From positions 697 to 64,696 of IMG/VR virus record IMGVR_UViG_3300037067_004487: DNA of 64,000 nucleotides; one strand, written 5' to 3'. Positions 2,417 to 62,886 of the stretch are shown here, piece after piece. The DNA comes from a virus (taxonomy: Duplodnaviria > Caudoviricetes). The position numbers were made by a program, and so were the translations under genes. Under the pieces are notes generated by a model. It had not been told where the DNA came from, did no database searches, and was given only the letters and a program-made list of their open reading frames with translations. Each line of letters opens with the position of its first letter. Position 1 is the first letter of the stretch.

Positions 2417-2829
2417 CAAAGGCCGACAAGGTTTATTGCGGCTACCCAGGTGGGCGCCCCGCGTGGCCCTTCGGCACGTACATGAGTCGCATCGCGGTCA
2501 ATGGTGCGCAGCCAGAAGTGACCCCACCCAGGTATGACAAAGCCAGGGCCAGGAACCGGCGTGCGGCGGTGCTCAAAGCTCTTGATGGCGGCGCCATGTT
2601 GATTCCTGAAATCTGCAGCGCCACCAAAGACAACGACGGTTACGTGAGGAAGGTGCTGAATGAATTTCTCGCAGCAGGCCTGGTGACAAAGGCGCGTTGG
2701 CGCGGCGGGAAATCCAACACATTGAGCTTCAAGCTGACGGCGAAGGGCCACAAGCAAACCGGCGAAGTCTGCGCGCCGTCTATCGCAGACAAAAGAAAGC
2801 CCGCTGGCAGGCGGGCAATCGAGGGATAA
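2413..2829 (+). CDS. Winged-helix DNA-binding protein
   Basis: ATGA overlap with upstream gene; VLKALDGGAMLIPEICSAT..VRKVLNEFLAAGLVTK wHTH pattern. Confidence 0.6.
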   Translation: MTKADKVYCGYPGGRPAWPFGTYMSRIAVNGAQPEVTPPRYDKARARNRRAAVLKALDGGAMLIPEICSATKDNDGYVRKVLNEFLAAGLVTKARWRGGKSNTLSFKLTAKGHKQTGEVCAPSIADKRKPAGRRAIEG

Positions 2830-2833
2830 AACA

Positions 2834-4707: not shown

Positions 4708-4709
4708 GC

Positions 4710-6336: not shown

Positions 6337-6542
6337 TGGCGTTCGAGGAAAAAACACCCTTCGGCGCCTATCGGCAGTGTCGCCGTTGCCATGTGCACAT
6401 GCCCGCCACGGCTCAATTCTTCGAGCGCTCGCGCACTTGTTTGCTGGGGCTCACGAGCACATGCCGGGACTGTCGCAACAAGATGAATCGCGCGGCCTAC
6501 CGAGATCGTCTGTCGAGCCTGTCGAGGGCCGTAAATGCATGA
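6333..6542 (+). CDS. Small Zn-finger protein
   Basis: CRRC..CRDC motifs; coupled to neighbours. Confidence 0.55.
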   Translation: MMAFEEKTPFGAYRQCRRCHVHMPATAQFFERSRTCLLGLTSTCRDCRNKMNRAAYRDRLSSLSRAVNA

Positions 6543-6730
6543 CCCAATTCGAGCAACAAGCCCAGCACCTTACAACGCTGGCCACAACCCCGGGCTGGTG
6601 GGAATACACCCGCCAGAGAGTGCGCGAGCTGGACAAGGAGCCGGGTTTCGAGGGCATCCATGCCGAGGTGACGAAGCGCATCAAGGCGAGCGGGTACAAG
6701 CCGGACATGCGACGGGAGAGGGTGCTGTGA
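6539..6730 (+). CDS. Hypothetical protein
   Basis: ATGA-type coupling; TTPGWWEYTRQRVRELDK. Confidence 0.55.
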   Translation: MTQFEQQAQHLTTLATTPGWWEYTRQRVRELDKEPGFEGIHAEVTKRIKASGYKPDMRRERVL

Positions 6731-6933
6731 CGGCGGTATTCCTGCCTGATGGCCCTGCGGCCCGCCTGTGCGCAGAAATCGCACAGCGCCAGGCCATGGA
6801 GCCGCGCACGTACTCAATCAACGGCACGAAACGTCAACGTATGCAGCGCTCGAAAGAGTTAGCGATGGATCTGGCGGTGCACTGGCAGCGGGAGATTGAA
6901 GCGCTGGATGCGAAGGAGGCGAGCCGTGGTTGA
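6727..6933 (+). CDS. Hypothetical protein
   Basis: GTGA overlap with upstream stop. Confidence 0.45.
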   Translation: MTAVFLPDGPAARLCAEIAQRQAMEPRTYSINGTKRQRMQRSKELAMDLAVHWQREIEALDAKEASRG

Positions 6934-7384
6934 ACGCCTGACGCTTTCCCTCCATGAGCCGGTGCAGGCCCGCAAAGCCGTCGATTACCTCTACATCACG
7001 GCCAAGCCCTTGCTGATGGCTGGACATCGTCTCGTGGCGAAGCTGGAACCAGAGACGCGTCGGGACAACCACAACCGTCACTTTCACAGCCTGATCGCGC
7101 AGATCAGCGAGCAGATCGGCGGTGACTTGGCGGACAAGGAAGACGCGAAGCGCATCCTGATCTCCGCTTTCCGCATCGACACCCGAGACGATCCCGACCT
7201 GGCCGGTGAGTGGGCGAAGTTCGGCGACATGCGCATGGGCCGTGGGTTGCGCGGGGAAGTGGTGCTCATGGGGATGCAGTCGCGCGACTTCACGATCAAG
7301 CTGGCGCGCGCGTTCATCCATTGGCTTTACGCCTTCGGCGCGGAGCATGACGTGACGTTCAAGCCGTGGGAGGTAGACGAATGA
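6926..7384 (+). CDS. ninB: NinB-family recombination protein
   Basis: RRDNHNRHFHSLIAQISEQ..QSRDFTIKLARAFIHWLYAFGAEHDV; GGAGG SD. Confidence 0.8.
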   Translation: MVERLTLSLHEPVQARKAVDYLYITAKPLLMAGHRLVAKLEPETRRDNHNRHFHSLIAQISEQIGGDLADKEDAKRILISAFRIDTRDDPDLAGEWAKFGDMRMGRGLRGEVVLMGMQSRDFTIKLARAFIHWLYAFGAEHDVTFKPWEVDE

Positions 7385-33235: not shown

Positions 33236-36200
33236 ATGACGCCCGACGAATACCTGAATCAGGCCGACGAGTACATCGCGGCCAAGTCCACGAAAAATCC
33301 CAATGCGGGGAGCGCCGAGCCCAAGGTGTTCACCGAACGTGAGCTTGGTTTTCAGCCAAGGCGAACGTGGGGCGAGGCCATCAAGGATACCGGCGCGGCG
33401 CTGGCCGGAGGGGTTGCCGGTCTCGGCAAGACGGCGGGCGATCTGTATGGCCTTGCTTCCGGGGACATGGACAACGCGCTTTCGCGCTACTCGCAGAAGG
33501 GCCAAGAGTATTTTGACGAGGCGAAGTCCGGCGCCCTGAAGGAGAAGATCGCCGAGCGCAGCGCGAACATCGACGCGCAAGATTCCACGCTGGGCAAGGC
33601 ATGGACGGCGGTGAAGGACACCCTGACCGACCCGGCCCTTGCAATGGATACGGCGGCGAGCAACGCGGCCACGATGATCCCCAGCATGGGCGCCGGGCGC
33701 CTGGCGGGCGGTATCACGGCGGCGCGCGGCTTTGCAGCGGCGCAGGCTGCGGCAGGTGCTGGCAAAGCAATTACCAAGGAAGCTGCTGATCAGGTTGCCA
33801 TGCGCGCAGGGCGTGTCGCAACTGGCACTGCTATCGGCACTGGCGCCGTGCAACAGGGCGCCGACGTGTCTGGCGACATCTACGGCGATCTTCTCAAAAA
33901 CACCGATGCGCAATGGGCGCAGAGCCCCGAGTACGTAGCCGCGCTGCAAAGAAACGGCGGTGACGCACAGGCGGCCAAGCGCGAGCTGGCGCTTGGCGTG
34001 GCCCGGGCCTCGTTCCTGCCTGCGACGGCGATTTCCGTGGCGTCCAACGCCATTCCCGGTGCGACGCTGTTGGAGCGTGCACTTGTTGGTGCGCCTGCGG
34101 GGGCGGCTGCCAAGGCTGGGGCCAAGGAGGCTGGCAAGCTGGCAGGCATCCGGGCTTTTGCCAAGGGTGTTCTTGGCGAGGGCGCGCAGGAGTTTGTGGA
34201 GGAAGGCGGCGGCAGGCTGGCAGCGAACATCGCGGCGCAGCGGGTCGATCCGAGTCATGACACATTGGATCAGGTGGGCGAGAACGCTGGTCTTGGCTTT
34301 GCTGGTGGTGCACTGCTGGGTATCGGCGGCGGTGTGCGCGAGGGGCTGGCTGCGCGCAGGGGCTTCCAGCCTGGGGCCGATCAACAGCCTGGCATTGATG
34401 GTGCGCCACCAGCATCTGTTCCTCCGGCGGATGGCGGACAACCTTTGGCCCTGCCCGCGCCGGTGATCGACGTTGGTGGCGATGGTGTAGCGCGCACGGC
34501 GGACGACCGCAACGCGCGGACTCAGAGGATCAACAGCGGCGACATCACCGACGTAACGCCGATTCGTGAGACGCCGTTCGGCGCTGCCGAAGCTCCGGTG
34601 ATTGAGCCTGCTCCGGTGGTTCAGCCGCCCACCCCTTCCGAGCAGCTCGGCCTGCGCAGCGGCCCCGACGCCGGGACGATGGAGAACGCAGCGGCGCTGG
34701 CGGTGGACTCTGGTGCTTCGCCGATTGCTCAGACGGTGGACGCTGACGGCGTACTGCAAGACGCCACACAAGCGCGCGACTCGCGAGATTTGAGCGCCTG
34801 GACGGATGAGGAATTGAGCAGCACGTTTCGCAGCGATCAGGCCAAAGAGATTCGCCAGCAGCTTGCGCAGGAGATTGCGCGTCGCCGTGCCGTGCGCGAG
34901 CAGCAGGCGCTTCAAGACGAGCTGGATGCAGATCAGCAGGCGTTGAACGAGCCGCAATTGCCTGAGGGCGCCGATGCCGCGTTTGCCAGGACGTTCGAGG
35001 GCGAGGGCGACACGGTTTTTCAACCACGACAGGAGCAAGGCGATGGCACTCAAGCCCAAGAAACCCAGCAAGCGGGCGCGGGACAACCGCAAGCAGGAGC
35101 AGCGCAGACAAATGCAGGAGCAGGCGAGAACGCCAGCGCGGCTGGAAGAGGTGGCGTTCAAGAGGGTGGGGTAGGCAAGTATTCTGGCCCGGCCGATGTC
35201 TCCATTGTTGCCGGGCAGAAAGAGCTGGCCAATCGCGCCGCGACGATTTCCGCGCTGAAGGGCATGAATGGGCAGATACGCGCCATTTCGCCGGATGAGG
35301 CGTGGAACGACCGCGCAATCGAAGATGCCAATAATCTGGACGATCTGCGAGATGCGATCAGCAACACGTTGGTGCGCCTGACGCGCGGCGCTCAAACCAC
35401 ACAGGAGAATGCGCAAGCAGAGAGCTTGCGCAAGCGTCTTGATGCCGCCAGCGGCAGCGATCTGAGGCAGGTGTTTGACCGGCTCGGCCTTGCTGGCGCG
35501 AGGATGACCGCTGACGAGCGCGTGCGAGCGTTGATGGCGGAGGACTATGCCAGTGTCTCGCAGGCGTTGGATGCCGTAGATGGAAGTGCCCAACAACCTG
35601 CACTATCTTCCGTTTCAAACGCAGATGGTGACAACACCTCACCAACTGCGCCAGCCAGCGCCCCGACGCCCAAGCAGCAGAAGGCGCTGGATCGGATCGC
35701 CAGCGGTAAGGCGTTTTTCTTCTCGCAGCCCAAGGCCCAGGCGTTCATCGACGACAACGGCCTGAGCGGCACCCACGAGTTGGAGCAGCGCGGCAAGTCG
35801 TGGCATGTGGTCGAGTCTCAAAAATCAGCCGCGACCAAGACCTTCGCGCCAGAGACGGGCACGCTTGGTGTCCCGCGCTCGGAAATGCCGCAGGTGCCTT
35901 CGCGGTCCCATGGCGCGCTGGTCAACCATCTGAATGCCCAAGGCATCGCCCACGAGACGACGACCGTTGATGCTGGATCGCTCAAGCCGACGCAGGCCGA
36001 ATACTCTCCCGCCAAGGTGGAGGAAGCCAAGGCGGCGGATGGTGACCGCGCAGTGATTGTGTCCAGTGACGGGCACATCATCGACGGTCACCACCAGGCC
36101 ATGGCTGCCGCCGAGGAAGGCAAGCCGGTCAAGGCCATCGTGCTGGATGCGCCCGTTGATCAGGCGCTGGAGGCAGTGAAGAATTCACCTAGTGCGCAAC

Positions 36201-39200
36201 CATCGGAGGCTGCCAACACCGAGACCATGGACCTGCGCAAGCTGGCCCATGCGGTGGAGCAACCTGGCGACATCATGCTGGGCAACGACAAGTTTGTGAC
36301 GCTGGAGCAGGCCGTGGCAGCCGCCAAGGCTGAAATGACGCCAGCATCCTGGGGTATGCCGTTCCAATTCAATCGCGTGCTGGACATTGCGCCGCGTGAT
36401 TGGAACCGCATGGTGCAGGCCATGACGGGTAACGAATATCGTGACCCAACAAAGGGCGGCACCACAGATAGCGAACGCACAAAAGCCGAAGCGAAGCCTA
36501 CGAAGAAGCCGCGCGGCATCCTCGCCAAGAAGGCCGAGGCCGAGGAAGCTGCACGGGCGGAATACTTCACGCCGGGAAACATCGTCAAGAGCTACGGTGG
36601 TTTCGACCGCGTGATCGAGTACAACCCGAGCGCAGAGCGTGGCGGCTGGGAAGTTCAGGTTCAGGCGGTGCGCAAGGAGGGCGGCGCATGGGTGGATGTG
36701 CCCAACGAGCGCGCGCGCTGGCATTCCACACAGCCGGACGCCAAGGAGTTGAAGGCTGGGCCCGTGGGGAAGGTGGCGGTTGAGCAGGCGCCCGCCACTG
36801 CGCAGCCCGCGACGGCTGAGTCAGTGCAAGAGGCGGCAGCCAAGCTGCCTACTGACTTCATCACGGCGCCGGATGGCTCACTGGACTACGGCGAGATCAC
36901 GCCCGAGATGGGCAAGGCCATGCGCAGGCAGGCCGGGAAAATTCGGCTGCGACAGGGTAATGAAGCCTGGGGGCTGATCCATATTCAGAACCGCCACGGA
37001 ACGCAGTTCGCAAAGCTCGGTTTTGAATCTGCGATCGACTTCATCGCGCATGTTGCCGGTGCCTTCAACACCGTCTACAAAGGGAAGGGCGCGGGCTTGT
37101 CTCTGGTGCTTGAAACTGACCGCGTTGGCGGGCGGTTGATGGTGGAGCTCGAACCGTCGGAGGATGTGGATTTTTATGACGTGAAGACGGCATCCCCTGT
37201 TCGCGTTGACCAATACAAAAACGAGAAACCGCTGTGGAGGCGCGTCGGGACCAACGCGCTATCTGCCGAAGCAGACCCCCTTCTTCCCAGGGGCCAAAGC
37301 GGTAGCGACAGTATAGCCCAGAGCACCACGCAAGTGCAACCCGTCACCCCTGCCCAAGTACAGGCCGCCACCGAGCAGATCAAGAACCTGATCGGAGCGG
37401 CCATTGATGCCATGCCAGCGGGCGAGGTCAACCGCATCGCCAAGAAGTTTCTGCCGACGATGGGCGTCAAGCCCACGGTGAGCAAGGCCAAGAACAAGGA
37501 GGCGTTCGTTGACCCGAAGGTGAATCTGCTGGGCGCGGCTGCGGAGCTGGGCGTGGAAGTGCCTGCTGAGGTGCGGCGGGCGCTGGTGGCTGAGGCTGAA
37601 GGACGAGTGCAAGAGGCGCCAGAGCCGGTGTCACAACCCGAAGCGCGCAAGGCGGCGAAGGCGGGGGCGAAGGAATCGACGGCGATTTCTGATTTCGGAG
37701 AGAAGATCGGAGGCGCCAAGAAGGACATCTGGGCTTCCATGCAGGACAGCCTGAAGGCGGTGGCGGATGGTGACATCGCTAGTCAACCGCTGTCCAAGAT
37801 ATGGCCGCAGCCAGACTACCAGGCTTTGATCGACGGCGGCGCCGACCCGTGGGTGATGGCGTTCGCCCGAGCTGCACGCGACGAGGTGCCCGCCAAGCCG
37901 CGCAGTGGCTGGAAGGTCAAGCGCTGGGCAGAGCAGGTGCGAACCTTGCGTGGCCTGACCGTGGAATTGATGGACGGCACGCTGAGTGTGGACGAGGTTC
38001 GCAAGAAGATGCTGGGCCTGAACTCGCAGGGGATGCGCGATCTGAATGGTCGGGTTGACCTCTACATGCTGGTGGGGCATCGCCAGTCGCTGGACGGCGT
38101 GCGCATTTCATCGGGGCAGTATTCCCTCTACAAGGGGCAGGATTTCAACCCGCCCAAGACGTTCTGGACGGTGGAGAAGTCCACGAAGGCAACGGTCTTC
38201 GGCAACTGGCCGCGAGAGCTGGCCATAGGCAACACGCGCGAGGAAGCGCTGCAGGCGTTCAAGAAGGCTTACGACTCGCTGGACATCAACCCAGCTCCGT
38301 CCAAGGAGGTGTCGTTCGAGATTTACAGCAGGCGCGGTGATGATGGCAAGGCGTCCGGGTATTGGGTGGCCAAGAAGATCGGGCGCAACCCCATATTCCT
38401 GGCCGGGCCGTTTGCCACCGTCAAGGAAGCCCGCGCCTACCGCGACGAGCATCAGGCCGAGCTGGTGGAGAAGCTGGCCAAGGTCAAGGAAATTCCGCGC
38501 GAGCGCCGCGATACGAATGAGCCGCGCGTGGGCGAGGACATGCGCAACGGGCAGGACGTGACGCCGCAAATGTTTGGCGACACGTTTGGCTTCAGAGGGG
38601 TGGAGTTTGGAAATTGGGTCGAGCAGGGCCGCCGTCAGAAGGACTTGAACGATGCGTTCGATGCGCTGATGGATATGGCTGCAGTGCTGGGCTTGCCGCC
38701 CAAGGCTCTGTCCCTGAACGGCGAACTCGGGCTGGCATTTGGTGCGCGTGGTTCGGGTGGCGTGAACCCAGCATCGGCGCATTACGAGCGTGACAAGGTG
38801 GTGATCAACCTGACGAAGAAGTCAGGCGCGGGCAGCCTTGGGCACGAGTGGTGGCACGCGCTGGACAACTATTTCTCGCGGATGCGCGCGCAGCCTGTCT
38901 CCATGATGACGACGGCGCTGGATGTGTCGCTGGCGTCAAGGGGCTCGCCTTTCGAGCATCGCGGCGCCGTGCGCAAGGAGATGATCCAAGCCTACGGCGC
39001 GGTGGTCAAGGCCATCCGCCTGACCGCGCTGAAGGCGCGCTCGGCCAAGCTGGATGCCAAGCGTACGAAGGAATACTGGACGACGGGCCATGAGATGTCG
39101 GCACGGGCGTTCGAGTCCTACCTGATTTCCAAGCTGCAGGATCAGAACGCATCAAACGACTATCTGGCCAACGTGGTGTCGCCACAGACGTGGAAGGCAG

Positions 39201-42200
39201 CCGAGGCGCTGGGGTTTGAGCTGGAAGAAAGCTACCCCTATCCGACCGCTGGCGAGATTCCAACGATCCGCGCCGGGTTCGATGAGTTTTTCCAGACCAT
39301 CGAGACCCGCGAGGGCGAGGATGGGAAGGTGGCGCTGTTCAACGAACGGCGCGGCCAGGATGCGCCCGCCGAAGAGACGGCCAAGGTGCAGAAGGCCATC
39401 GAGGGCGGCACGCTGATCGACGCAGCGCAGTTTGTGGCGGACACGGGCTCAGAGGCACAGCAGGCGGTGGCCGAGATGGTGGTCAAGAAGCTGCAGGCGC
39501 TGCAGGACGCCGGGTTCAATCTGGACTTGAAGGTGGCGCATCGGGGCTTCCCGGTGCCGATGGAGCTTGCGAATGCCCGGGGATACACCGAATCGGCGTT
39601 CGACGCCAAGGGCCGGGACATCACGGTCTGGCTCAACGGTGCGGATGTGACCGGCAAGGTGGGGGTCGATTACGAGACCTTGCTGCATGAGTTGGTGCAC
39701 GCGGCCACGATGGGGGCGGTGATGCATGGGCGGGCGGTCAAGGGTTCTCCGTTCGCCGCTGATGTGGCGGCTCTGATGGATGTGACGGACGCGATTGCTG
39801 CGCACATCAACCAGCGGTTTGCGGATGCGGATGCGGGCCGGGCGACGCTGACGGAGTTCGAGAAGGATTTGCGCGCAGGGGCGAACAATGCCTTCACGCA
39901 GGATGACGAGACGCTGGCCTGGGCTTTGAGCAGTGTGGAGGCGCAGCAGTATCTTGAGACGATTCCCTACAAGCGCACGCAGCAGTCGCTGTGGCAACGG
40001 TTTGTGCAAGCGGTGCGCTCTGCGCTGGGCCTGAAGCCGCAGGCGGATACGGCGCTTTCCGAGGTGTTGCGCGTGGGTGCTTCCATCCTTGGGCGCAAGG
40101 AAAGCCAGGTGCGCGGCGTGCCTTCGTTCTGGCACAAGCGCGGGTTGCGCATGACGACGCAGCAGTCCGATGGCAGCACGGTGGCGATCAATCAGGCGGG
40201 GGCGGTGTATGCGGACAGCCCGACGCACAACACCAACTTCGCGTCCAACCCAGACAAGCGCCCCGGCACAGCGCAAGACAAGGCCGTCATGCGCGCCATT
40301 GCCGACGGCAAGAGCGCGCGCGATGTTCTGCGCCTGATCGCCAGCTCCAGCAAAAACCCGTTCAACCGGCAGGTGGCCCAGCTGCTGCTCAAGGCTGGCG
40401 TGACGCCCGACATCGTGTTCGGGCATATCGGCAAGCGCGGCGCCGACGGGATTCACGGCCAGTACCGTGGCAAGACCGACACGATCCACATCGCTGGCAG
40501 CGCCGAATACGCCGCCGAGCGCATCTTCCTGCACGAGGCGATGCACGCGGCGACCATGCGCGCGCTCAGGAAGAAGGGTCTGCACTCGATCCAGCTTCGC
40601 AAGCTGTTCGAGCATGTGAGCAAGCAAAAGAGCCTGGCCGGGTTCTACGGCATCAAGAACGTGGACGAGTTCGTGGCCGAGGTGTTCACGAACCCGGATT
40701 TCCAGCAGGCGCTGCGCAATATCAGCGCACCAAGCGGCAGCCCGCTCAAGACCGCATGGGACAGCTTTGTGCGGATCATGCGCTCCATCCTTGGATTGGG
40801 GAATGACTCGCACAGCGCGCTGTCGCAGGCGCTCAATCTTGGCGTGGGCGTGGTGCGCGAGGACATGCTGATCCGCAAGAAGGGCACGAGGATGGGGATG
40901 CGCGCCGAAGGTGGCGTTGACCCTGACGCCAAGGCGGCCGTTGCGTTGCAGCAGCGTGTTGAAGGCATGAGCGCGCAAGAGCTGGCGCAGTTTCTGGCGT
41001 CGGACAACACGCCAGCGCAGGCGGCTATTGCCCGGCGGGTGAGCGAACGCTTGACGGCGCTGCAAAAGCAAGGGGTGAAGTTCGACTTCAAGGTGTCGCA
41101 CATTGGCACGTTTGCCCCTGCGGCCATGAACCGGGCGCGGGCCTACACCGAGTTTGAGGTGGACGACAAAGGCCAAATCAGCGTGACGGTATGGGCGCAC
41201 GGCGCGGACATGCAAGGCCGCGTGGGGATGGATAAGGGCACGCTGTTGCACGAGCTGGTTCACGCTGTCACCGGGGCCGCGCTGCAGGCTGGGCGTATGC
41301 ACCCGGACTCGGCCTACAGACAATCCGTGGGCGACTTGCGCAAGCTGCACGCAGCCCTTGTGGAGCACATCATTGACCGACGCAAGCGCATGGGTGACGG
41401 CATCAGCGAGTTCGAGAAGTCGATTCTTGAGGGAGCGAACAATGCGATGCAGTCCGAGGATGAAATTCTGGCTTGGGGGCTGACGAATCCTGAGATGCAA
41501 AGCCTGCTGGAGTCCATGCCCTACCAAGGGGCAACGGGATGGGGCAGGTTCGTGCAGACGATCCGCAATCTGCTGGGACTGGCGCCTTCGGCAGACACCG
41601 GGCTATCTGAGGTGCTGCGCATTGCCGACCAGATCATGAGCGCCGATCCGGTAGAGACTTCCGAGCTGCCCAACATCGCCAAGTCGGGCATGCCGATGTA
41701 CAGCACTCAAGGTACGGCGCGGCGCTGGGGGATGGCCGAGCAGGATGGTGACGGCCATGTAGCCAACTTTGGCACGGATGACATGGCGCGCAACATCGGC
41801 GATGGCCTGAAGTCGATCACGGTGCCAAACGTCAAGCGCCTTGGCAAGCACAAGCTGACGGACTGGCTCAAGCTGGGCCTGCAGTTCCTGGGCCGCAGGC
41901 AGTTGGTGGACATCTACGGCGACATGCTTCCGATGGCCGAGTACGACCGTCTGGCGGCGCAGATGGAGGCGGACAAGAACGAGTCCGGCTCCGAGGCTGA
42001 TGAGCTGGTGCGGCGCTGGGCGAAGCTGCCCGACGAGGGCAAGCTGGCCGACTTGATGCACGAGGCGACGCTGGCGCAGATCGACGCGGATTCCGCCGTG
42101 GCGCATGACCCGAGCGATGACCAGATGCAGAGCCGGGCGCTCAAGGGCAGGTTCGATGCCCTGTCGCCGCAGGCGCAGAAGGTGTACCGCGAGGCGCGCG

Positions 42201-44422
42201 ACAGCTACCGCGCGCACCATGCGCAGGTGCGCCAGGCGATCAAAGACCGCATCGAGCGCAGCGAGCTGTCCAACAGCCGCCGGACGGAGCTGCTGCAGCG
42301 CATGGATGACGATTTTTTCCAGAAGGTGAAGGGGGTTTACTTCCCGCTGGCGCGCTTTGGCCAGTACGTGGTGGCGGTCAAAGACGCTGGTGGGCAGGTG
42401 GTGAGCGTGTCCAGGGCAGAGACGATGCCGGAGGCGGAGCGCGCGCGGGCGCAGTTGCTGGGGGCATTCCCGAAGGATAAGGGTTTCTCCGTGGGCCGCG
42501 TGACGCTGGACAAGGAGTTCGTGGCGAGCCACAAGATGGTGGGCCGGGGCTTCATGACCGATCTGTACCGGGCGATGGAGGGAATTGACCTGCCCACGGA
42601 TCAACTGGCCGAGATGGAGGACACGCTGGGGCAGTTGTACCTGTCGAGCCTGCCTGATCTGAGCTGGGCCAAGCACGGCATTCACCGCAAGGGCACGCCG
42701 GGCTTCAGCCAGGACGCGCGCCGGGCGTTTGCGCAAAACACCTTCCACGGCGCCCGCTACCTTGCGAAGCTGCGCTACGGCGACCGGATGCAGTCCGAGC
42801 TGGAGGCTATGCAAAAGCATGTGGACGAGTGGAGCGCGGTGGAAGATTTCGACCAGCCGGGGGCGCAGCGTGTGGTGGACGAGATGATGAAGCGCCACGA
42901 CACGATGATGAACCCCAAGAGCAACCCGCTGGCGACGGCGATGACGAGTCTGGGCTTTGTTTACTACCTTGGCCTGTCTCCAGCGGCGGCGGTGGTGAAC
43001 CTGTCGCAGACGGGGCTGGTGGCCTACCCGGTGATGGCGGCCAAGTGGGGCTACGCCAAGACGGCATCGGCGCTGCTCAAGGCGTCCGAGGAGTCGGTGC
43101 GAGGCAAGAACGACATCCGCACGCAGCTCAAGAGCCAAGACGAGATCGACGCCTACGACCGGGCTGTGGCCTCTGGCGTGATCGACGTGACGCAGGCGCA
43201 CGATCTGGCTGGTGTGGCGCAGGGCGAGGATCAGCGGGTGGCGTGGAAGCTGCGCCCGGTGATGAAGGCGGCGTCGTTCCTGTTCCACCACGCGGAGCGG
43301 TTCAACCGGCAGGCGACGTTCATGGCGGCGTACCGGCTGGCGAAGGAGGCGGGATCGAAGAATGCCTATGAGGATGCGGTGAAGGCGACCTATGACGGGC
43401 ATTTCGACTACAGCAGCTCGAACCGGCCCCGCGTGATGCAGGGCAATGTGGCGCGTGTGGTGCTGCTGTTCAAACAGTTCGCGCAGAACATGATCTACAC
43501 CATCGGGCGTCAGGCGTATCTGTCGGTGCAGGGTGAATCCCCGGAGGTGAGGAAACAGGCGCGCAAGACGTTCGCCGGGCTGATGGTGACGCACGCCATG
43601 GGCGCCGGGGTGTTGGGCCTGCCGCTGGTGGCGCCGCTGCTGGCGGTGGCGTCCATGCTTGGCGGCAGCGATGACGAGCCGTGGGACGCTGAGGTGGCGC
43701 TCAGGAACATGCTGGCCGATACGTTCGGGGCAAAGGCTTCCGAGGTGATCGCCAAGGGGCTCTCGCGTTTGACGCCTTGGGATATTTCCGGCCGGGTGGG
43801 GTTGGACAACCTGATCTTTCCCGACGTTCAGGAAGGGATTGAGGGGCAGCGCTGGGCCGAGTCGTTCGCTACGGGGATGCTGGGGCCGGTGATTGGCATG
43901 GGGGTGAACGCGGCGAAGGCGGCGCAGAGCCTGGGCGACGGTAACTACCAGCGCGCGCTGGAAGAGTTCATGCCGGTGATGCCGCGATCTTCGGTGAAGG
44001 CATACCGCTACTGGACGGAAGGCGACAAGGACAAGACCGGGGTGGTCGTCAAGGATGAGGTCGGCCTGGCTGGCGTGCTCGGGCAGGTGGCCGGGTTCTC
44101 GCCATCCGAGGTGCGGCTTGCCAGAGAGGGGCGGTCTGCGGTGCTGGATCAGGATCGCAGGCTCGGCGCACGCCGCTCCGAGTTGCTGGCGCAGTATGCC
44201 CACGCGGCCATGCGCGGCGACGCCGATGGCAAGCAGGATGCGGCAAATGCGATCCGGGCCTTCAACGAGAAGAACCCGACGCGCCGGATTACGGTGCCGC
44301 AGATGATGCAGTCGATGAGGAACCGCCAGAAGCGCATTGACCAGGCGCAGGACGGTGTGTATCTGCCGCGCACGAGAAGGGATGCGGCGCAGGCGGGGGC
44401 GTTTGCCCTCGATGGGGCCTAG
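33236..44422 (+). CDS. Large polyvalent protein, 3,728 aa (internal virion protein)
   Basis: ParB-like DGHH (about 36083), barnase/EndoU/colicin/RelE-like GLIHIQNRHG (about 36970), DFGEKIGGAK, zincin HExxH at about 38843, 39686, 40532 and 41249, EMSARAFE, YFPLARFG (PLxRFG, about 42344). Confidence 0.88.
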   Translation: MTPDEYLNQADEYIAAKSTKNPNAGSAEPKVFTERELGFQPRRTWGEAIKDTGAALAGGVAGLGKTAGDLYGLASGDMDNALSRYSQKGQEYFDEAKSGALKEKIAERSANIDAQDSTLGKAWTAVKDTLTDPALAMDTAASNAATMIPSMGAGRLAGGITAARGFAAAQAAAGAGKAITKEAADQVAMRAGRVATGTAIGTGAVQQGADVSGDIYGDLLKNTDAQWAQSPEYVAALQRNGGDAQAAKRELALGVARASFLPATAISVASNAIPGATLLERALVGAPAGAAAKAGAKEAGKLAGIRAFAKGVLGEGAQEFVEEGGGRLAANIAAQRVDPSHDTLDQVGENAGLGFAGGALLGIGGGVREGLAARRGFQPGADQQPGIDGAPPASVPPADGGQPLALPAPVIDVGGDGVARTADDRNARTQRINSGDITDVTPIRETPFGAAEAPVIEPAPVVQPPTPSEQLGLRSGPDAGTMENAAALAVDSGASPIAQTVDADGVLQDATQARDSRDLSAWTDEELSSTFRSDQAKEIRQQLAQEIARRRAVREQQALQDELDADQQALNEPQLPEGADAAFARTFEGEGDTVFQPRQEQGDGTQAQETQQAGAGQPQAGAAQTNAGAGENASAAGRGGVQEGGVGKYSGPADVSIVAGQKELANRAATISALKGMNGQIRAISPDEAWNDRAIEDANNLDDLRDAISNTLVRLTRGAQTTQENAQAESLRKRLDAASGSDLRQVFDRLGLAGARMTADERVRALMAEDYASVSQALDAVDGSAQQPALSSVSNADGDNTSPTAPASAPTPKQQKALDRIASGKAFFFSQPKAQAFIDDNGLSGTHELEQRGKSWHVVESQKSAATKTFAPETGTLGVPRSEMPQVPSRSHGALVNHLNAQGIAHETTTVDAGSLKPTQAEYSPAKVEEAKAADGDRAVIVSSDGHIIDGHHQAMAAAEEGKPVKAIVLDAPVDQALEAVKNSPSAQPSEAANTETMDLRKLAHAVEQPGDIMLGNDKFVTLEQAVAAAKAEMTPASWGMPFQFNRVLDIAPRDWNRMVQAMTGNEYRDPTKGGTTDSERTKAEAKPTKKPRGILAKKAEAEEAARAEYFTPGNIVKSYGGFDRVIEYNPSAERGGWEVQVQAVRKEGGAWVDVPNERARWHSTQPDAKELKAGPVGKVAVEQAPATAQPATAESVQEAAAKLPTDFITAPDGSLDYGEITPEMGKAMRRQAGKIRLRQGNEAWGLIHIQNRHGTQFAKLGFESAIDFIAHVAGAFNTVYKGKGAGLSLVLETDRVGGRLMVELEPSEDVDFYDVKTASPVRVDQYKNEKPLWRRVGTNALSAEADPLLPRGQSGSDSIAQSTTQVQPVTPAQVQAATEQIKNLIGAAIDAMPAGEVNRIAKKFLPTMGVKPTVSKAKNKEAFVDPKVNLLGAAAELGVEVPAEVRRALVAEAEGRVQEAPEPVSQPEARKAAKAGAKESTAISDFGEKIGGAKKDIWASMQDSLKAVADGDIASQPLSKIWPQPDYQALIDGGADPWVMAFARAARDEVPAKPRSGWKVKRWAEQVRTLRGLTVELMDGTLSVDEVRKKMLGLNSQGMRDLNGRVDLYMLVGHRQSLDGVRISSGQYSLYKGQDFNPPKTFWTVEKSTKATVFGNWPRELAIGNTREEALQAFKKAYDSLDINPAPSKEVSFEIYSRRGDDGKASGYWVAKKIGRNPIFLAGPFATVKEARAYRDEHQAELVEKLAKVKEIPRERRDTNEPRVGEDMRNGQDVTPQMFGDTFGFRGVEFGNWVEQGRRQKDLNDAFDALMDMAAVLGLPPKALSLNGELGLAFGARGSGGVNPASAHYERDKVVINLTKKSGAGSLGHEWWHALDNYFSRMRAQPVSMMTTALDVSLASRGSPFEHRGAVRKEMIQAYGAVVKAIRLTALKARSAKLDAKRTKEYWTTGHEMSARAFESYLISKLQDQNASNDYLANVVSPQTWKAAEALGFELEESYPYPTAGEIPTIRAGFDEFFQTIETREGEDGKVALFNERRGQDAPAEETAKVQKAIEGGTLIDAAQFVADTGSEAQQAVAEMVVKKLQALQDAGFNLDLKVAHRGFPVPMELANARGYTESAFDAKGRDITVWLNGADVTGKVGVDYETLLHELVHAATMGAVMHGRAVKGSPFAADVAALMDVTDAIAAHINQRFADADAGRATLTEFEKDLRAGANNAFTQDDETLAWALSSVEAQQYLETIPYKRTQQSLWQRFVQAVRSALGLKPQADTALSEVLRVGASILGRKESQVRGVPSFWHKRGLRMTTQQSDGSTVAINQAGAVYADSPTHNTNFASNPDKRPGTAQDKAVMRAIADGKSARDVLRLIASSSKNPFNRQVAQLLLKAGVTPDIVFGHIGKRGADGIHGQYRGKTDTIHIAGSAEYAAERIFLHEAMHAATMRALRKKGLHSIQLRKLFEHVSKQKSLAGFYGIKNVDEFVAEVFTNPDFQQALRNISAPSGSPLKTAWDSFVRIMRSILGLGNDSHSALSQALNLGVGVVREDMLIRKKGTRMGMRAEGGVDPDAKAAVALQQRVEGMSAQELAQFLASDNTPAQAAIARRVSERLTALQKQGVKFDFKVSHIGTFAPAAMNRARAYTEFEVDDKGQISVTVWAHGADMQGRVGMDKGTLLHELVHAVTGAALQAGRMHPDSAYRQSVGDLRKLHAALVEHIIDRRKRMGDGISEFEKSILEGANNAMQSEDEILAWGLTNPEMQSLLESMPYQGATGWGRFVQTIRNLLGLAPSADTGLSEVLRIADQIMSADPVETSELPNIAKSGMPMYSTQGTARRWGMAEQDGDGHVANFGTDDMARNIGDGLKSITVPNVKRLGKHKLTDWLKLGLQFLGRRQLVDIYGDMLPMAEYDRLAAQMEADKNESGSEADELVRRWAKLPDEGKLADLMHEATLAQIDADSAVAHDPSDDQMQSRALKGRFDALSPQAQKVYREARDSYRAHHAQVRQAIKDRIERSELSNSRRTELLQRMDDDFFQKVKGVYFPLARFGQYVVAVKDAGGQVVSVSRAETMPEAERARAQLLGAFPKDKGFSVGRVTLDKEFVASHKMVGRGFMTDLYRAMEGIDLPTDQLAEMEDTLGQLYLSSLPDLSWAKHGIHRKGTPGFSQDARRAFAQNTFHGARYLAKLRYGDRMQSELEAMQKHVDEWSAVEDFDQPGAQRVVDEMMKRHDTMMNPKSNPLATAMTSLGFVYYLGLSPAAAVVNLSQTGLVAYPVMAAKWGYAKTASALLKASEESVRGKNDIRTQLKSQDEIDAYDRAVASGVIDVTQAHDLAGVAQGEDQRVAWKLRPVMKAASFLFHHAERFNRQATFMAAYRLAKEAGSKNAYEDAVKATYDGHFDYSSSNRPRVMQGNVARVVLLFKQFAQNMIYTIGRQAYLSVQGESPEVRKQARKTFAGLMVTHAMGAGVLGLPLVAPLLAVASMLGGSDDEPWDAEVALRNMLADTFGAKASEVIAKGLSRLTPWDISGRVGLDNLIFPDVQEGIEGQRWAESFATGMLGPVIGMGVNAAKAAQSLGDGNYQRALEEFMPVMPRSSVKAYRYWTEGDKDKTGVVVKDEVGLAGVLGQVAGFSPSEVRLAREGRSAVLDQDRRLGARRSELLAQYAHAAMRGDADGKQDAANAIRAFNEKNPTRRITVPQMMQSMRNRQKRIDQAQDGVYLPRTRRDAAQAGAFALDGA

Positions 44423-50126: not shown

Positions 50127-50343
50127 TTTTGCGCCAACCGTTGCGCCAACGATGCGCGAAAATCGAATAAAACAGTAGCAAGAAACCCATGGTGCCCGGG
50201 GCCGGACTCGAACCGGCACGCCTTGCGGCGGGGGATTTTGAGTCCCACTACGTTTTTAGCGCTGGCGCGGCTTTACTAGCTGTTTTTCGCGCAAAAAACA
50301 CCCGGTTCCTTCACTCTGTCAGAAAACTTTTGCGCCAACGATT
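50127..50343. other. attP: core 50190-50246 equals the 3' part of tRNA-Leu(CAA), with arm sites
   Basis: Reverse complement GGGACTCAAAATCCCCCGCCGCAAGGCGTGCCGGTTCGAGTCCGGCCCCGGGCACCA; TTGCGCCAAC arm repeats x2 left and x1 right; next to the int 3' end. Confidence 0.88.
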
Positions 50344-51369
50344 TCAACGCACCGCGCGCAGCTTCTGCGCCTTGGTTCGGTAGTGCTTGGCGGTGATGGT
50401 TTTGCTGCTGTGCTGCAGCAGTTTTGACGCTTCATCAACATCTTCTGCGAGGTCTGCCGCGAGACTGCGCATGTCGCGCAGGTACATCCCTCGGATGCGC
50501 TGCCCCATGTCCTTGTCGCCTGCTTTCTCAAACTGGTAGGCTGCGGCATCTCTGGCGGCATCCCAGCGGGTGCGCAGCATCCCCGCAGACACGGCGCGGC
50601 CCGTCTCGGTGCATAGCAGCATGACGCAGTGCGCTTTCATGGCCTCCCGGCGCGTCACCAGCGCTGATAGAACGGGGGACTCGGAGACGACGAATTGCGC
50701 AGGCTTCTTCGTCTTGCTGGCCCGGTGAGTCAGAACACCGTCTGCAGGCATCCGCACCGTCCTCGCGTCGGTGATCCTCATGCCAGTGGCCGAGGCGATG
50801 TCCATGCAGTCCTTCAGGACCTGATCGGCCTGGGCGTACACGGCGGTGAACATGGCTTGCGTGATTTCGTATTCGCGAGCACTCTCGGGATTCTTCCAGC
50901 CCTTCACGTCGGCGGCAGGCCACGGCAGGCGGGTCATTCCCCACAGCAGGGCCTTGCCCCATACGATGCGCAGCAGGGACATTTCGCGGTTGCCCTGGGT
51001 CTTGGCGGTGCGGTGGTCGAGGTAGAAGCGCAGGGCAGGGAGGTCTACTTCGTCCCATGTCATTTGCCCGAAAACAGGGCGGATGGTGCGCAGGTTCTTC
51101 GTGTAGCCCCGTCGAGTCTCCGCACTCTCGTACTTGGGCAGTTCATCCTGCTCGAATCTGTTGAACGCTTCGTCCAGACGGCCCAGTGTCAGCGGGCGCT
51201 TGTTGTGAAGCTGCTCCCACTGCTCGATAGCCTTGTCGTAGTCCTTGCCAAGGCGGATGTCCGTCTTCCCCTCCGGGCGCATGTCGTAGCTGTAGTACAC
51301 ATACGCCTGACCGCCCGCGCCGCGATAGACCTTGGTTCGCAGGCGCGGGTATTTCGTGGCCTTTGGCAT
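50344..51369 (-). CDS. int: Tyrosine integrase
   Basis: TGMRITD (R), YLRDMRSLAA, LLQHSSKTITAKHY. Confidence 0.92.
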   Translation of the reverse strand: MPKATKYPRLRTKVYRGAGGQAYVYYSYDMRPEGKTDIRLGKDYDKAIEQWEQLHNKRPLTLGRLDEAFNRFEQDELPKYESAETRRGYTKNLRTIRPVFGQMTWDEVDLPALRFYLDHRTAKTQGNREMSLLRIVWGKALLWGMTRLPWPAADVKGWKNPESAREYEITQAMFTAVYAQADQVLKDCMDIASATGMRITDARTVRMPADGVLTHRASKTKKPAQFVVSESPVLSALVTRREAMKAHCVMLLCTETGRAVSAGMLRTRWDAARDAAAYQFEKAGDKDMGQRIRGMYLRDMRSLAADLAEDVDEASKLLQHSSKTITAKHYRTKAQKLRAVR

Positions 51370-51379
51370 AGTGGTGCTC

Positions 51380-51586
51380 CTATCGGATGGCGGCGGTGTT
51401 CATTCCATGGCGCGCCAGCGATGGCCTGCCTTCGAGCCAGGCTTGGACGTGCACGCGCGAGACGATGATTCTCGCGCCATCCTGCTTGTGCGGGATGCCA
51501 CGGAACTTGAGCCACGCGGCTTGCTGGGTTGACCTTGCATAACCCGTGAGCTGGTGCAGTTCAGGGCTGCTCAGATACTCGCTCAT
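51380..51586 (-). CDS. xis: Excisionase (DUF4224-like)
   Basis: YLSSPELHQLTGYARSTQQAAWLKFRGIP, directly upstream of int. Confidence 0.8.
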   Translation of the reverse strand: MSEYLSSPELHQLTGYARSTQQAAWLKFRGIPHKQDGARIIVSRVHVQAWLEGRPSLARHGMNTAAIR

Positions 51587-51667
51587 GGTGCTCTCCAAAG
51601 AAAAAGCCCTCGTCGGAGGGTTCTGGATAGGGATCGCGCTTGTCCCTTCGCTGGCGGGCACGGCGGA

Positions 51668-51895
51668 TCATCTCTTCAACCTCCACAAAATCGGCTTCCC
51701 GGAATCGGCGCGGGCGATGAGTCCACGCTGCTCAAGATCGAGCAGAAGGCGCGAGACGAAGGCGGCGTGCTTCCGATCGCTCTCTGCGCCGGGCTGGCGT
51801 CCGATCAATGGCGTGAATTCGGCGTTGAGCATAGTCAAGTTGGTCGCTAGCTCTTTCAGTATGAATTCCTGCTGCTCAGAGAGTAGGATGGTCAT
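51668..51895 (-). CDS. Small wHTH-like protein
   Basis: LLDLEQRGLIARADSGKPILWRL; AAGGAG SD. Confidence 0.55.
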   Translation of the reverse strand: MTILLSEQQEFILKELATNLTMLNAEFTPLIGRQPGAESDRKHAAFVSRLLLDLEQRGLIARADSGKPILWRLKR

Positions 51896-52008
51896 TTATC
51901 GCTCCTTGCGAGGATGGCTGCGGCGTGGTCTCTCGCGGCCTCGTGCAGCGCGCCGTAGTGCTTGGCGCTGCATCCGAGGTATGGAGGGTCTGCGTATGCG
52001 GCTTTCAT
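51892..52008 (-). pseudogene. 38-aa remnant of a DPPY-type DNA methylase N-terminus
   Basis: MKAAYADPPYLGCSAKHYG; GAGG SD; ATGA coupling to the next gene. Confidence 0.55.
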
Positions 52009-52025
52009 GGTTCCTCGTGGTCGCG

Positions 52026-52085
52026 GTCTAACAATTCATCCAAGCCGACGCCGCTACGCGGCGCGGCTTAATTCAGGCGTTGGCC
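52026..52085 (+). other. Integron attC site (aadA-type, 60 bp)
   Basis: GTCTAAC-AATTC-ATCCAAGC-CGACGCCGCTACGCGGCGCG-GCTTAAT-TCAGGC-GTTGGCC: R''/L''/L'/R' layout with the extra L'' base. Confidence 0.85.
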
Positions 52086-52309
52086 GGTAGGTCGTCCGGC
52101 CGCCCGTCGCCGCAGTGCGGGCACCACCAGACGCCGTGTCCAGGCTCTGCCGGGTTATCGCGGTAGTTCTGCGGCCATTCATCTTTCGGCAGCGGCAACG
52201 TGCGCCCGAGCAGCGGATTCCCGTCGCGCCCTTCGTGGGTGTGCGGCCCAATCCCGTAGATCGGGAAGCACGCCGCCCCATCCGGGTCGGTGCAGTATTC
52301 GCAGCTCAT
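52073..52309 (-). CDS. Small Cys-rich protein ending inside attC
   Basis: MSCEYC..WWCPHCG; stop lies within attC. Confidence 0.6.
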   Translation of the reverse strand: MSCEYCTDPDGAACFPIYGIGPHTHEGRDGNPLLGRTLPLPKDEWPQNYRDNPAEPGHGVWWCPHCGDGRPDDLPANA

Positions 52310-53345: not shown

Positions 53346-53533
53346 GGTTCGATCTGTTCCTCGTAATCAGCAGCCGTGTGGCACTCGCTGGGGAAATGCA
53401 GGCCCGGCATGCAGCATTCGCCGGGCGGCAGGCAGCATCCAAACTCTGGGGGGCTGCTTTCTTGGCTGTCATCGTCCTCGTAGTCGGTGCATTCGTCGCA
53501 CCCGTTGCAGCCGTTTTCGCATGGGTGGGTCAT
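53342..53533 (-). CDS. Cys-rich microprotein B
   Basis: MTHPCENGCNGCDECTDYED..CCLPPGECCMPGLHFPSECH. Confidence 0.6.
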   Translation of the reverse strand: MTHPCENGCNGCDECTDYEDDDSQESSPPEFGCCLPPGECCMPGLHFPSECHTAADYEEQIEP

Positions 53534-53769
53534 GGCGTGCTCCTTGCGCGGATGGCTGCTGCACAACCCTTTGCTCCCTCTGCCAGTGCAGCGAGTACCG
53601 GATGGTCACTTGATTGTTCGGTTCGGTATTCACACACCTTCGCGCATTCTTCGCGTTCGAATGCTTGCCCAGCCGCATAAGCCGACTCCCAGATTTCCCA
53701 AGAAAGACAGGCCTTTTTACTAGCGCGCGCCCTGGCCGCCCATTGCTCGAAATCTGCTTTCATGCTCAT
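53530..53769 (-). CDS. Hypothetical protein
   Basis: FEREECAKVCE..CAAAIRARS, a common phage early-gene pattern. Confidence 0.6.
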   Translation of the reverse strand: MSMKADFEQWAARARASKKACLSWEIWESAYAAGQAFEREECAKVCEYRTEQSSDHPVLAALAEGAKGCAAAIRARSTP

Positions 53770-54002: not shown

Positions 54003-54162
54003 TGCTGGCTCCTTCAGCGCTGCACTCCGGGCACGGCAGCAAATAGTCACTCCATGGGTCTCTGCCGTCCCCATGGCAACGCGGGCATTCGTGATCTTCA
54101 AAGTCTTCGTAGTCGGTGCAGGCGTCACAGCCGTTGCAACCGTCCTCGCAGGGATCTTTCAT
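53995..54162 (-). CDS. Cys-rich microprotein A (not in ORF track)
   Basis: MKDPCEDGCNGCDACTDYEDFEDHECPRCHGDGRDPWSDYLLPCPEC; ATGA overlap. Confidence 0.6.
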   Translation of the reverse strand: MKDPCEDGCNGCDACTDYEDFEDHECPRCHGDGRDPWSDYLLPCPECSAEGASNG

Positions 54163-55340
54163 GCTGCACCGCCTTCCTTGGCTTGGGCGCGGGCGGCGGC
54201 GTTAATGGCGTCGCGCAATGTGCGGCCATGGACTGCTGTGTCCTCGTACCCATATTCAACCTCCCATCGGATTGGTCCGTTGAACCCTTTGCGGACGCGC
54301 TGGATACGCACGTTTCCGACGCGCTCGATTAGTTCGATCAGCGCATCCCCCTGCGCTACTGGCGCTGGCTGCGGCAAGGTGTCAAGCGCAGCCGGGTAAG
54401 CCCACAAACAGTCCCAAGTCCCGAAGTGCTTGCCTAGTGGGAAATCTGCTTTGAAACTTCCGCCAGTGTGCCTCCCGGTATAAACACGGCCTTCGTGCTT
54501 GAAAAGCACCGGCTCACCAATGTTCGGCAAGTATCGATCCTGCGATTTGTCGCACGGGTTGACCCAGACCGAATGCTCCTGCGCTGCCACTGGTGGCTGG
54601 GGTGCTGTCTTGGCAGGGGTTGCTGGAAATCGTCGAAGCTCAAGCAGGGCGCGGCGCAAGACGTTGACAGGCTCAAATGCGCCACGGTCATTGCCATTGA
54701 CACGAGCGATGAAGTCGTCCACGTCAAACAGCGCTTGGGCGACGGCATCGACATCGACCGGAACCGCCACAGCGGCAGGCGCATGGCTGAGAATGCTGGC
54801 AATGAGCTGCGCCACATTGCAGTCCGCGTAGCCATCATCGGCCACAGCTCCGATCCACTCGGGCGTCGGTCGAACTGGCACCAGCCGCCACCCATCCGGC
54901 ACCGCCACTGCGGCAGGCGCTGCCACCTGATCTACCGAGGACTGCTCGGCAGTTTCCATCACCTTGCCTTCGTTGTAGCCAAGCTCCCATGCGATACCGC
55001 ACACGTCAGTGCACGGGTTCTCGATCTCTTTTCCTGCTGACTGGGCATAGCGGCCCTTTCCAACACCCATCTCATAAGCGGTGGTGATGGCGAGAACATG
55101 GATGCGATCTGGTTTTGATTGCTCGGCAGTTGCCCGCTGCCCGAGCAGCTCCATGATGGAATCAGCCAGTTCTGCAGGCGTGTCGGACTCGCCCACGTCC
55201 GAGAAATCGTCTTCGCTCATCGTGCCCACACTCCATGCAGACCAAACTCGGTCGCAGTGGTAGGTGCCGCTCAGGCGAGCGGCGATGAGGTCGATCAGCT
55301 TCTCGCGCTGGGCAGCGTCATTGATAGTGGTGGTCGTCAT
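54159..55340 (-). CDS. Mosaic Ead/Eaa-like early protein
   Basis: Patchwork with a PAAVAVPDGWRLVPVRPT module; start ATG 55340. Confidence 0.65.
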   Translation of the reverse strand: MTTTTINDAAQREKLIDLIAARLSGTYHCDRVWSAWSVGTMSEDDFSDVGESDTPAELADSIMELLGQRATAEQSKPDRIHVLAITTAYEMGVGKGRYAQSAGKEIENPCTDVCGIAWELGYNEGKVMETAEQSSVDQVAAPAAVAVPDGWRLVPVRPTPEWIGAVADDGYADCNVAQLIASILSHAPAAVAVPVDVDAVAQALFDVDDFIARVNGNDRGAFEPVNVLRRALLELRRFPATPAKTAPQPPVAAQEHSVWVNPCDKSQDRYLPNIGEPVLFKHEGRVYTGRHTGGSFKADFPLGKHFGTWDCLWAYPAALDTLPQPAPVAQGDALIELIERVGNVRIQRVRKGFNGPIRWEVEYGYEDTAVHGRTLRDAINAAARAQAKEGGAA

Positions 55341-62056: not shown

Positions 62057-62631
62057 CACGCGCTCACTTCCTGCGGCTCGCGCGCCGCCTCGTGCGCCTT
62101 GATGGCTTCGCGGAACAGCTCCGCGCGGCTCGGCTCGTGATGGCCGACATTCCAGTGCGCCAGGGCCTGCTCGGCAGTCCACGGCCCCCGACACCCCGCG
62201 CGGTACTCGCCGTGTCGGACATGCAAGGCGTATTCCCACACGGCCAGGACCTGACCCGCACCGAACTCGATGGCTGAGTGGTCGAACGTGATGCCGTAGC
62301 TGATGTAGAGGTGGCCGCCCACACTGGTGAGCACCGGCAGGCTGGCACCCTCGGCCTCGATGGAGAGGTCGCCGCTCACGCTGGTGAGCACCGGCATGCT
62401 GGCACCCTCGGCCTCGATGGAGAGGTCGCCGCTCACGCTGGTGAGCACCGGCATGCTGGCACCCTCGGCCTCGATGGAGAGGTAGCCGCCCACACTGGTG
62501 AGCACCGGCAGGCTGGCACCCTCGGCCCGGATGTAGAGGTGGCCGGTGACCTCCGTGATGTCGGCGCAGTCTTTGAGATTCGCCTTCGTGACGATCAGAT
62601 CGCCGACGTACTTTGTATTGGATGCGGCCAT
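62056..62631 (-). CDS. LRR-like tandem-repeat protein
   Basis: Four 19-aa repeats AEGAS(L/M)PVLTSV(G/S)G(Y/D/H)L(S/Y)I; C-terminal YRAGCRGPWTAEQALAHW. Confidence 0.75.
   Translation of the reverse strand: MAASNTKYVGDLIVTKANLKDCADITEVTGHLYIRAEGASLPVLTSVGGYLSIEAEGASMPVLTSVSGDLSIEAEGASMPVLTSVSGDLSIEAEGASLPVLTSVGGHLYISYGITFDHSAIEFGAGQVLAVWEYALHVRHGEYRAGCRGPWTAEQALAHWNVGHHEPSRAELFREAIKAHEAAREPQEVSA
62303..62530. repeat. Four tandem 57-bp coding repeats
   Basis: Units 2 and 3 identical; units 1 and 4 nearly identical. Confidence 0.9.
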
Positions 62632-62684: not shown

Positions 62685-62771
62685 TGGTGGATTGCTAGGG
62701 AGTCGAACCCCGTAACCCAGAAGGGCGGCGGATTTACAGTCCGCCACAGTCGCCAGTGCTGCTCGCAATCC
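62685..62771 (-). tRNA. tRNA-Tyr(GUA)
   Basis: Acceptor GGATTGC/GCAATCC + A-CCA; anticodon arm GCGGA-CTGTAAA-TCCGC; long variable arm; TTCGACT T-loop. Confidence 0.88.
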
Positions 62772-62778
62772 GAATTGA

Positions 62779-62852
62779 TGACGCATCAGGCGGGACTCGA
62801 ACCCGCGACCTTGCCGATATATCGGCCTCTCTACCGTCTGAGCTACTGATGC
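62779..62852 (-). tRNA. tRNA-like element with a collapsed anticodon loop
   Basis: Perfect acceptor GCATCAG/CTGATGC and T-arm GCGGG-TTCGAGT-CCCGC; D-arm GCTC-AGACGGTA-GAGA; anticodon arm GCCGA-TATA-TCGGC (4-nt loop); 3' end GTCA. Confidence 0.7.
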
Positions 62853-62886
62853 GGATGGGCCCCGCGTCCGGGCTGGATTACTCCGC

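Follow-up and report, generated by a model that had tools for sequence, protein, structure and literature searches.

The attC sites of the aadB, aadA and catB3 cassettes, known from class 1 integrons, are 60 nt long and show the order R''-L''-L'-R', an extrahelical G, an extrahelical T and a 3-nt loop, all of which recur in the site described here. Loot et al. reported that cassettes insert efficiently at GWT sites of the genome and named the products SALINs; the same paper gives the GWT target consensus and counts 3400 SALINs in RefSeq genomes. As to phages, Qi et al. (2023; PMC9892861) screened 10,705 phage genomes and found integrons as well as 17 CALINs. Five of the six phage attC sites tested in that study recombined with attI1, and methyltransferases were among the cargo. 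The screen required at least two attC sites, so that single sites were left uncounted. Chromosomal integrons, finally, contain inverted cassettes that are self-expressed, for example those for toxin-antitoxin systems.

The attC described here belongs to a temperate phage of the Comamonadaceae. It was found in a stretch of 64,000 nt, called the window below, taken from the 64,696-nt IMG/VR virus record IMGVR_UViG_3300037067_004487. Unlike the aadB, aadA and catB3 sites it is located on a phage, with neither an integron nor a resistance gene. The distal bases of its R' box (TTGGCC) pair poorly with R'', and the loop of the bottom strand reads GTA instead of the GAA of the known sites. As in SALINs, there is one attC outside an integron, no integron integrase (IntI), and GTT at the junction. 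In contrast to the SALINs described, it resides in a phage genome and not in a bacterial chromosome, its cargo is truncated, its second junction is lost and its route of insertion has to be deduced. With the phages of PMC9892861 it shares an attC without IntI, and DNA methyltransferases are among the cargo there; it differs from them in being a single attC for which the donor cassette family can be identified. The cargo is reversed, as in inverted cassettes of chromosomal integrons, and forms a two-gene unit in the intact relatives on contigs L024 and L075. However, this unit consists of a methyltransferase-like gene with an ADPPY motif and a partner gene of about 105 aa, which do not make up any recognised toxin-antitoxin pair. 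The features of the region are as follows.

50189-50259, no strand assigned: attP core resembling the 3' end of tRNA-Leu, 91-95% identical to two Acidovorax loci (L049 and L050)
50344-51369, - strand: int, a phage tyrosine integrase (phrog_1), not an integron integrase
51380-51586, - strand: xis, an excisionase (DUF4224), common to Acidovorax and Pseudorhodoferax prophages up to 51609
51607-51620, - strand: terminator-like hairpin with T-run between the 75-aa gene and xis, from the terminator scan
51668-51895, - strand: phage early gene of 75 aa, possibly winged-helix-like; native and outside the cassette, with homologue P0002
51892-52008, - strand: ORF of 38 codons, the first 29 of which (about 52008-51921) are the 5' stump of the ADPPY methyltransferase-like cassette gene
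52009-52025, - strand: cassette leader of 17 nt with the ribosome-binding site CGCGACCACGAGGAACC, between attC and the ATG of the cargo, 17/17 identical to L080:1006-1022
52026-52085, bottom (recombinogenic) strand on -: integron attC of 60 nt, from blastn, alignment and our own covariance model
52026-52032 and 52079-52085, attC top strand on +: R'' (GTCTAAC) and R' (GTTGGCC), respectively
52073-52309, - strand: Cys-rich phage early gene of 78 aa (phrog_5457)

Comparison with plasmids placed the site in the sequence family of the resistance cassettes. A blastn search of 72,556 plasmids with positions 52006-52105 matched at least 5000 plasmid records, and all of the matches listed were 3' ends of resistance cassettes. 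Among those listed the attC of aadB, which encodes ANT(2'')-Ia, ranked first with 92.2% identity over 64 nt, while the attC of catB3 was 85% identical over 73 nt. When aligned by hand with two annotated plasmid examples, the phage site agreed with aadB attC at about 56 of 60 positions. The differences lie at position 2 of R'', at one base of the spacer, at one base of the loop and at one base of R' past the expected crossover point, which is between 52079 and 52080; they should be harmless. A preliminary description of this DNA had recognised the resemblance to known cassette attC sites, which holds, and had compared the site with the aadA type; the nearest named site among the matches listed is that of aadB.

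The + strand at 52026-52085 contains an imperfect palindrome. Because the attC family is absent from Rfam (a scan of the window with Rfam gave a tRNA only), we built a covariance model of our own, designated R1. It was trained on the bottom strands of 53 other attC sites, drawn from plasmids and from 30 IMG/VR contigs with the core of the attC family, and excluded the window site. The structure supplied was the textbook one, with an R box, an unpaired spacer, an L box with the extrahelical G, a stem with the extrahelical T and a 3-nt loop. Covariation backs this structure, since 14 of 22 pairs were changed on both sides, and 93% of the cells of the family alignment pair as against 21-44% with the partners slid. 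R1 gave 78.6 bits (E 4e-19) for the - strand at 52026-52085 and 20.3 bits for the + strand of the same 60 nt; no second attC in the 64 kb was significant. These scores mean that the phage attC is real, far above chance, strand-specific and single.

In the R1 alignment the phage site displays the AAC and GTT triplets, the L box with the extrahelical G, the extrahelical T, the unpaired central spacer and the 3-nt loop. Its core sites correspond to R'' (RYYYAAC) and R' (GTTRRRY) and the AAC and GTT triplets pair, with position 6 of R' being C and not R, and with mismatches at two of the seven pairs of the R box. The inner L'' and L' repeats are likewise present with both extrahelical bases, the spacer and the loop. 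To this are added the strand-specific covariance score and the homology to experimentally established attC sites, and 52026-52085 is a genuine integron attC. The preliminary description had proposed a canonical 60-bp site with the full R''-L''-L'-R' layout, present only once, and had suggested a covariance model as a check. The R1 score is not low, and the model alignment, the homology to plasmid attC sites and the lack of any other significant R1 match in the 64 kb bear out the proposal.

How should such a site be classified? A complete integron comprises intI, attI and a cassette array. No match to TIGR02249, the integron integrase model, was obtained in the whole 64,696-nt record, in agreement with the earlier statement that the phage lacks this enzyme, and the Int of the phage is an ordinary phage tyrosine integrase. 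A CALIN consists of at least two clustered attC sites without intI, and here the next best R1 match had 12.8 bits (E about 1). In a gene cassette the attC accompanies a cargo ORF between two G/TT junctions; the phage has retained attC and leader but no more than 29 cargo codons. Nor is the attC a Rho-independent terminator, since a T-run is absent on both strands and the scan makes no call there. With one attC, no second attC nearby and no intI nearby, the remaining phage element is a solo attC (SALIN).

All genes flanking the site are on the - strand and the top strand of the attC is on +. In the direction of transcription the order is the Cys-rich gene, attC, the 38-codon ORF, the 75-aa gene, the terminator-like hairpin, xis, int and the attP core. 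The Cys-rich ORF overlaps the attC by 13 nt, so that its last two codons and its stop codon (TGA, 52075-52073) come from the attC. The arrangement sketched in the preliminary description is thus confirmed in each of its points: the top strand is opposed to phage transcription, the attC overlaps the stop of the Cys-rich ORF, int is about 0.7 kb away (its start is at 51369, a gap of 657 bp), and attP, recognised by the match of its core (50189-50259) to the 3' end of tRNA-Leu, is about 1.8 kb away.

The 38-codon ORF starts with MKAAYADPPYLG and its DPPY motif gave weak matches to phrog_1996 and PF02086. Its last nine codons are unrelated to the cargo and end in an ATGA overlap with the 75-aa gene; they are the native upstream region of that gene, including an AAGGAG ribosome-binding site. 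An unrelated phage-like operon without attC encodes P0002, which is homologous to the 75-aa protein over its full length (61% identity, 99% coverage). No relatives of the 75-aa and 38-aa ORFs were found in IMG/VR or among GenBank phages.

A few repeats were noted elsewhere in the window. The terminator-like hairpin is included in a 28-nt repeat with 86% identity (51611-51638 and 32057-32084), which may be a reused terminator module. A direct repeat of 79 nt with 73% identity (53456-53534 and 54085-54163) covers the starts of two small ORFs on the - strand, which look like paralogous Cys-rich early genes. A tandem array with a period of 57 nt and about five copies (62302-62586) lies just before a tRNA-Tyr and an odd tRNA-like gene (62685-62853). 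The phage also possesses a giant ORF of 3,728 aa (33236-44422), 8 kb from the attC.

The integration module and the Cys-rich gene have relatives that end on either side of the site. Int is 80% identical at the amino acid level to the integrase of a prophage of Acidovorax kalamii. Homology of the int-xis-att region to Acidovorax and Pseudorhodoferax prophages is limited to 50190-51609, ending at 50189/50190 and at 51609, and none of these homologous int-xis loci has an attC. A homologue of the Cys-rich gene in phage contig L033 shows 76% nucleotide identity up to window position 52092 and then diverges, with other genes following there. Homology is thus interrupted on both sides of the stretch 51610-52091, and the attC indeed marks a gene-content breakpoint, an association that had been proposed as a check. 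A search for a close relative of the window phage, with or without attC, found none.

The source of the foreign stretch could be traced to a cassette family that occurs in cassette arrays of metagenomes. The closest match was the metagenomic contig L080, with 89% identity over 150 nt (window 52070-51921 against L080:961-1110). Homology is unbroken from the inside of the attC through the leader into the start of the cargo gene; besides the leader, 78 of the first 87 coding nucleotides are identical, and identity is lost thereafter, near 51921. Positions 51935-52011 are also 84% identical to the IMG/VR contig L024, where they correspond to the start of a 178-aa gene within a row of attC sites. 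The intact cargo gene has 172 aa in L080 and 178 aa in L024.

A metagenome scan with the L024 protein returned 309 relatives, and the attC model was run on the best 80 loci. These gave 73 attC matches, all 73 of them on the sense strand of the gene, and at no fewer than 19 of these best 80 of 309 loci an attC ended 10-25 nt before the ATG of the ADPPY gene. IMG/VR contained 141 ADPPY relatives; 13 of the best 80 loci had attC, and 39/39 attC matches were again on the sense strand. Since all 112 matches of the two sets (loci L061-L140 and L141-L220) share this strand, the ADPPY cassette gene is always in reverse orientation. In L075 the ADPPY cassette is located about 1.1 kb upstream of a gene for IntI (480.7 bits on TIGR02249; cut-off 265) and its gene points towards intI, i.e. 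it is reversed with respect to ordinary cassettes. The ADPPY gene (172-178 aa) is usually followed by an overlapping partner gene of about 105 aa, both being intact in L024:3499-4349 and L075:1438-2321. The ADPPY gene and its partner are a widespread integron cassette. More distant ADPPY relatives are ordinary phage genes without attC, so transfer between phages and integrons is possible in either direction. A search of 301 genomes from the likely host family with the ADPPY protein gave no match.

The reverse orientation accounts for what at first looks odd in the phage. Because crossover takes place at the 5' end of the attC bottom strand, attC, leader and reversed gene form one cassette, and the attC top strand opposes phage transcription because the gene of the cassette, being reversed, is aligned with the operon. 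In other words the antisense orientation of the attC is a trait of the cassette family and not a peculiarity of the phage.

We consider it probable that an integron gene cassette once entered the temperate phage and was later broken by deletion, and that this genuine attC is the end of it that survived. The cassette would have been inserted immediately behind the Cys-rich early gene, which would since then have borrowed the stop codon of the attC. Its gene would have read with phage early transcription, leaving the attC top strand antisense. Codon 30 and the rest of the cargo, as well as the other junction of the cassette, may then have been lost in a later deletion, which left a solo attC. 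Entry would most likely have been mediated by IntI of the host, the target being either a secondary site with GTT or an attC already present, and the host presumably an integron-bearing member of the Comamonadaceae. The R' box of the attC is exactly one border of the foreign stretch, and a border at G/TT is what IntI crossover predicts. No second cassette junction survives in the phage, and because this junction is gone, entry by IntI is something that we infer; the arrangement would look no different after recombination with another phage that carried an attC.

A candidate for the left junction was considered at 51824 (GGCG/TTGAGC). The GTTGAGC at this position has GGCG in front of it, as does the R' box, giving a 7-nt direct repeat with 52076-52082, and deleting the interval from 51824 to the R' repeat would fuse the two ORFs in frame. 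It was rejected on the grounds that the 75-aa gene, which spans 51824, is a whole native gene with P0002 as a full-length homologue, and that the Cys-rich family ends where the window protein ends. A pick-up resembling specialised transduction was also rejected, since int and xis are located between attP and attC.

Entry without IntI is possible, if on the unlikely side. The attC and the stump would in that case have come by homologous or illegitimate recombination with a phage or prophage bearing an attC-flanked ADPPY cassette. Such donors are conceivable given that attC sites surround the gene in 13 of the best 80 IMG/VR ADPPY loci and that the L024 contig has tail genes. The end of the stump has no recognisable recombination site, and both borders are module boundaries typical of phage mosaics. 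However, one border falls exactly at the R' box with the Cys-rich ORF running into it, as expected of IntI crossover at G/TT, and IMG/VR, in which the exact attC-leader junction had no match, yielded no donor phage with that junction. Among other IMG/VR phages, the four whose attC sites are closest have nothing in common with the window beyond the attC, bar one 77-nt match to the ADPPY gene, and thus represent independent acquisitions.

If the attC did arrive as part of a cassette that has since been broken, as we favour, it may be asked whether it still works. In the preliminary description it was suggested that the phage could use a host integron integrase to gain or shuffle early-region genes or cassettes, or to integrate at attI. 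We regard it as unlikely that the attC is actively kept, be it for IntI of the host to insert or swap cassettes in the early region or for integration of the phage at an attI or attC of the host. The attC has stayed near the family consensus (hence its 78.6 bits) while the cargo decayed, and attC arrays occur around the ADPPY gene family on other IMG/VR phage contigs. Recombination of published phage attC sites with attI1 (PMC9892861) also speaks for activity. Against this stand the presence of one site only with no intact cassette, the lack of attC in the homologous int-xis modules of other prophages, and the failure to find any phage variant with a different cassette at the site.

Folding likewise argues for reduced activity. 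The computed probability that the R triplet and the L core form was 0.014 in the phage attC, the lowest of 44 sites compared; the 43 comparison sites had a median of 0.74, with plasmid aadB and catB3 at about 0.12-0.13, all under the looser constraint, because the strict one put plasmid aadB attC near zero too. The R box is weak, and a competing small hairpin forms. In the cell, integrase stabilises attC structures, so the weak R box lowers the odds of activity but does not bring them to nothing. The 3-nt loop is of the kind that extrudes readily from double-stranded DNA, which favours hairpin formation at the site.

Hosts with IntI appear to be plentiful. In the family of Acidovorax kalamii, to which the likely hosts belong, 65 of 151 genomes sampled had IntI above the curated cut-off, and each of the four related genomes tested contained attC sites of the same kind as the phage site. 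It seems that members of the family very commonly have chromosomal integrons, and the phage will therefore often meet IntI. Several of the same 151 genomes contained two to seven IntI matches. Expression of IntI and induction of prophages are both triggered by the SOS response and would therefore be expected to coincide.

With all of its defining features retained in the sequence, the attC could still be cut by IntI of a host. As to the earlier idea, then, a canonical attC, a breakpoint and hosts rich in intI, which the preliminary description had wished to see searched for, are in its favour; use by the phage is the part that did not find support, since only a broken cassette is present. An intact attC and leader, a cargo cut after 29 codons and no second junction make the site look like a decaying past acquisition and not like a working shuffling device. 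Only as a speculation, and one we think quite unlikely to be right, might the ADPPY two-gene unit move from temperate phages to chromosomal integrons of the bacteria they infect and back again, always reversed for expression from its own or phage signals, with solo attC sites as live docking points and SOS inducing IntI and prophage together.

It is very improbable that the hairpin now serves the early operon as an RNA or DNA element (an attenuator, a processing signal or a stability signal), its attC ancestry being incidental. The bottom strand does correspond to the sense of the transcript, the stem is stable (-17 to -18.5 kcal/mol, z about -2.5 to -3), and attC sites have been suggested to act as weak terminators (PMC9892861). 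Yet the absence of a T-run and of a scan call leaves 51607-51620 as the only terminator-like site, and conservation is with integron attC sites and not with phage relatives. An assembly artefact, with a repeated attC causing phage and integron sequences to be joined during metagenome assembly, is extremely improbable: the attC family is highly repeated in environmental DNA, its exact core being present on 30 IMG/VR contigs, but both flanks consist of phage genes that follow one another as expected (lysis region, attP, int, xis, early genes), a foreign stretch of only about 165 nt could have come in only if the assembler had erred twice, once near 51920 where the sequence is not repeated, and the ORFs are neatly fused, with a stop codon inside the attC and an ATGA overlap to the next gene.

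Phage attC sites, CALINs and SALINs have been described before and the present cassette is broken, so that the field as a whole is unchanged. What is added is a solo attC in a temperate phage of the Comamonadaceae that comes from the sequence family of clinical resistance cassettes (aadB, aadA, catB3). Moreover, the donor cassette family can be named, its fixed reverse orientation explains the 'wrong-way' attC, and the cassette is apparently decaying. In the phage attC, gene flow between integrons and a temperate phage has left a clear physical trace. An attC of the resistance type, together with likely hosts in the IntI-rich Comamonadaceae, supports the proposal in the literature that parts of integrons can travel between bacteria with phages.

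Two further viral contigs with several attC sites were observed. L024 (3300048590_000330) has at least eight attC sites in a row (2480-7127) beside a tail-fibre gene, with no IntI; the contig contains tail, tail-fibre and tail-assembly genes, and the row is located within the phage or in flanking host DNA. On L025 (3300020577_006534), three attC sites in two orientations (3346-4245) follow right after a giant DarB-like antirestriction gene. The record that carries them is an unrelated 62-kb virus, 98% complete according to CheckV.
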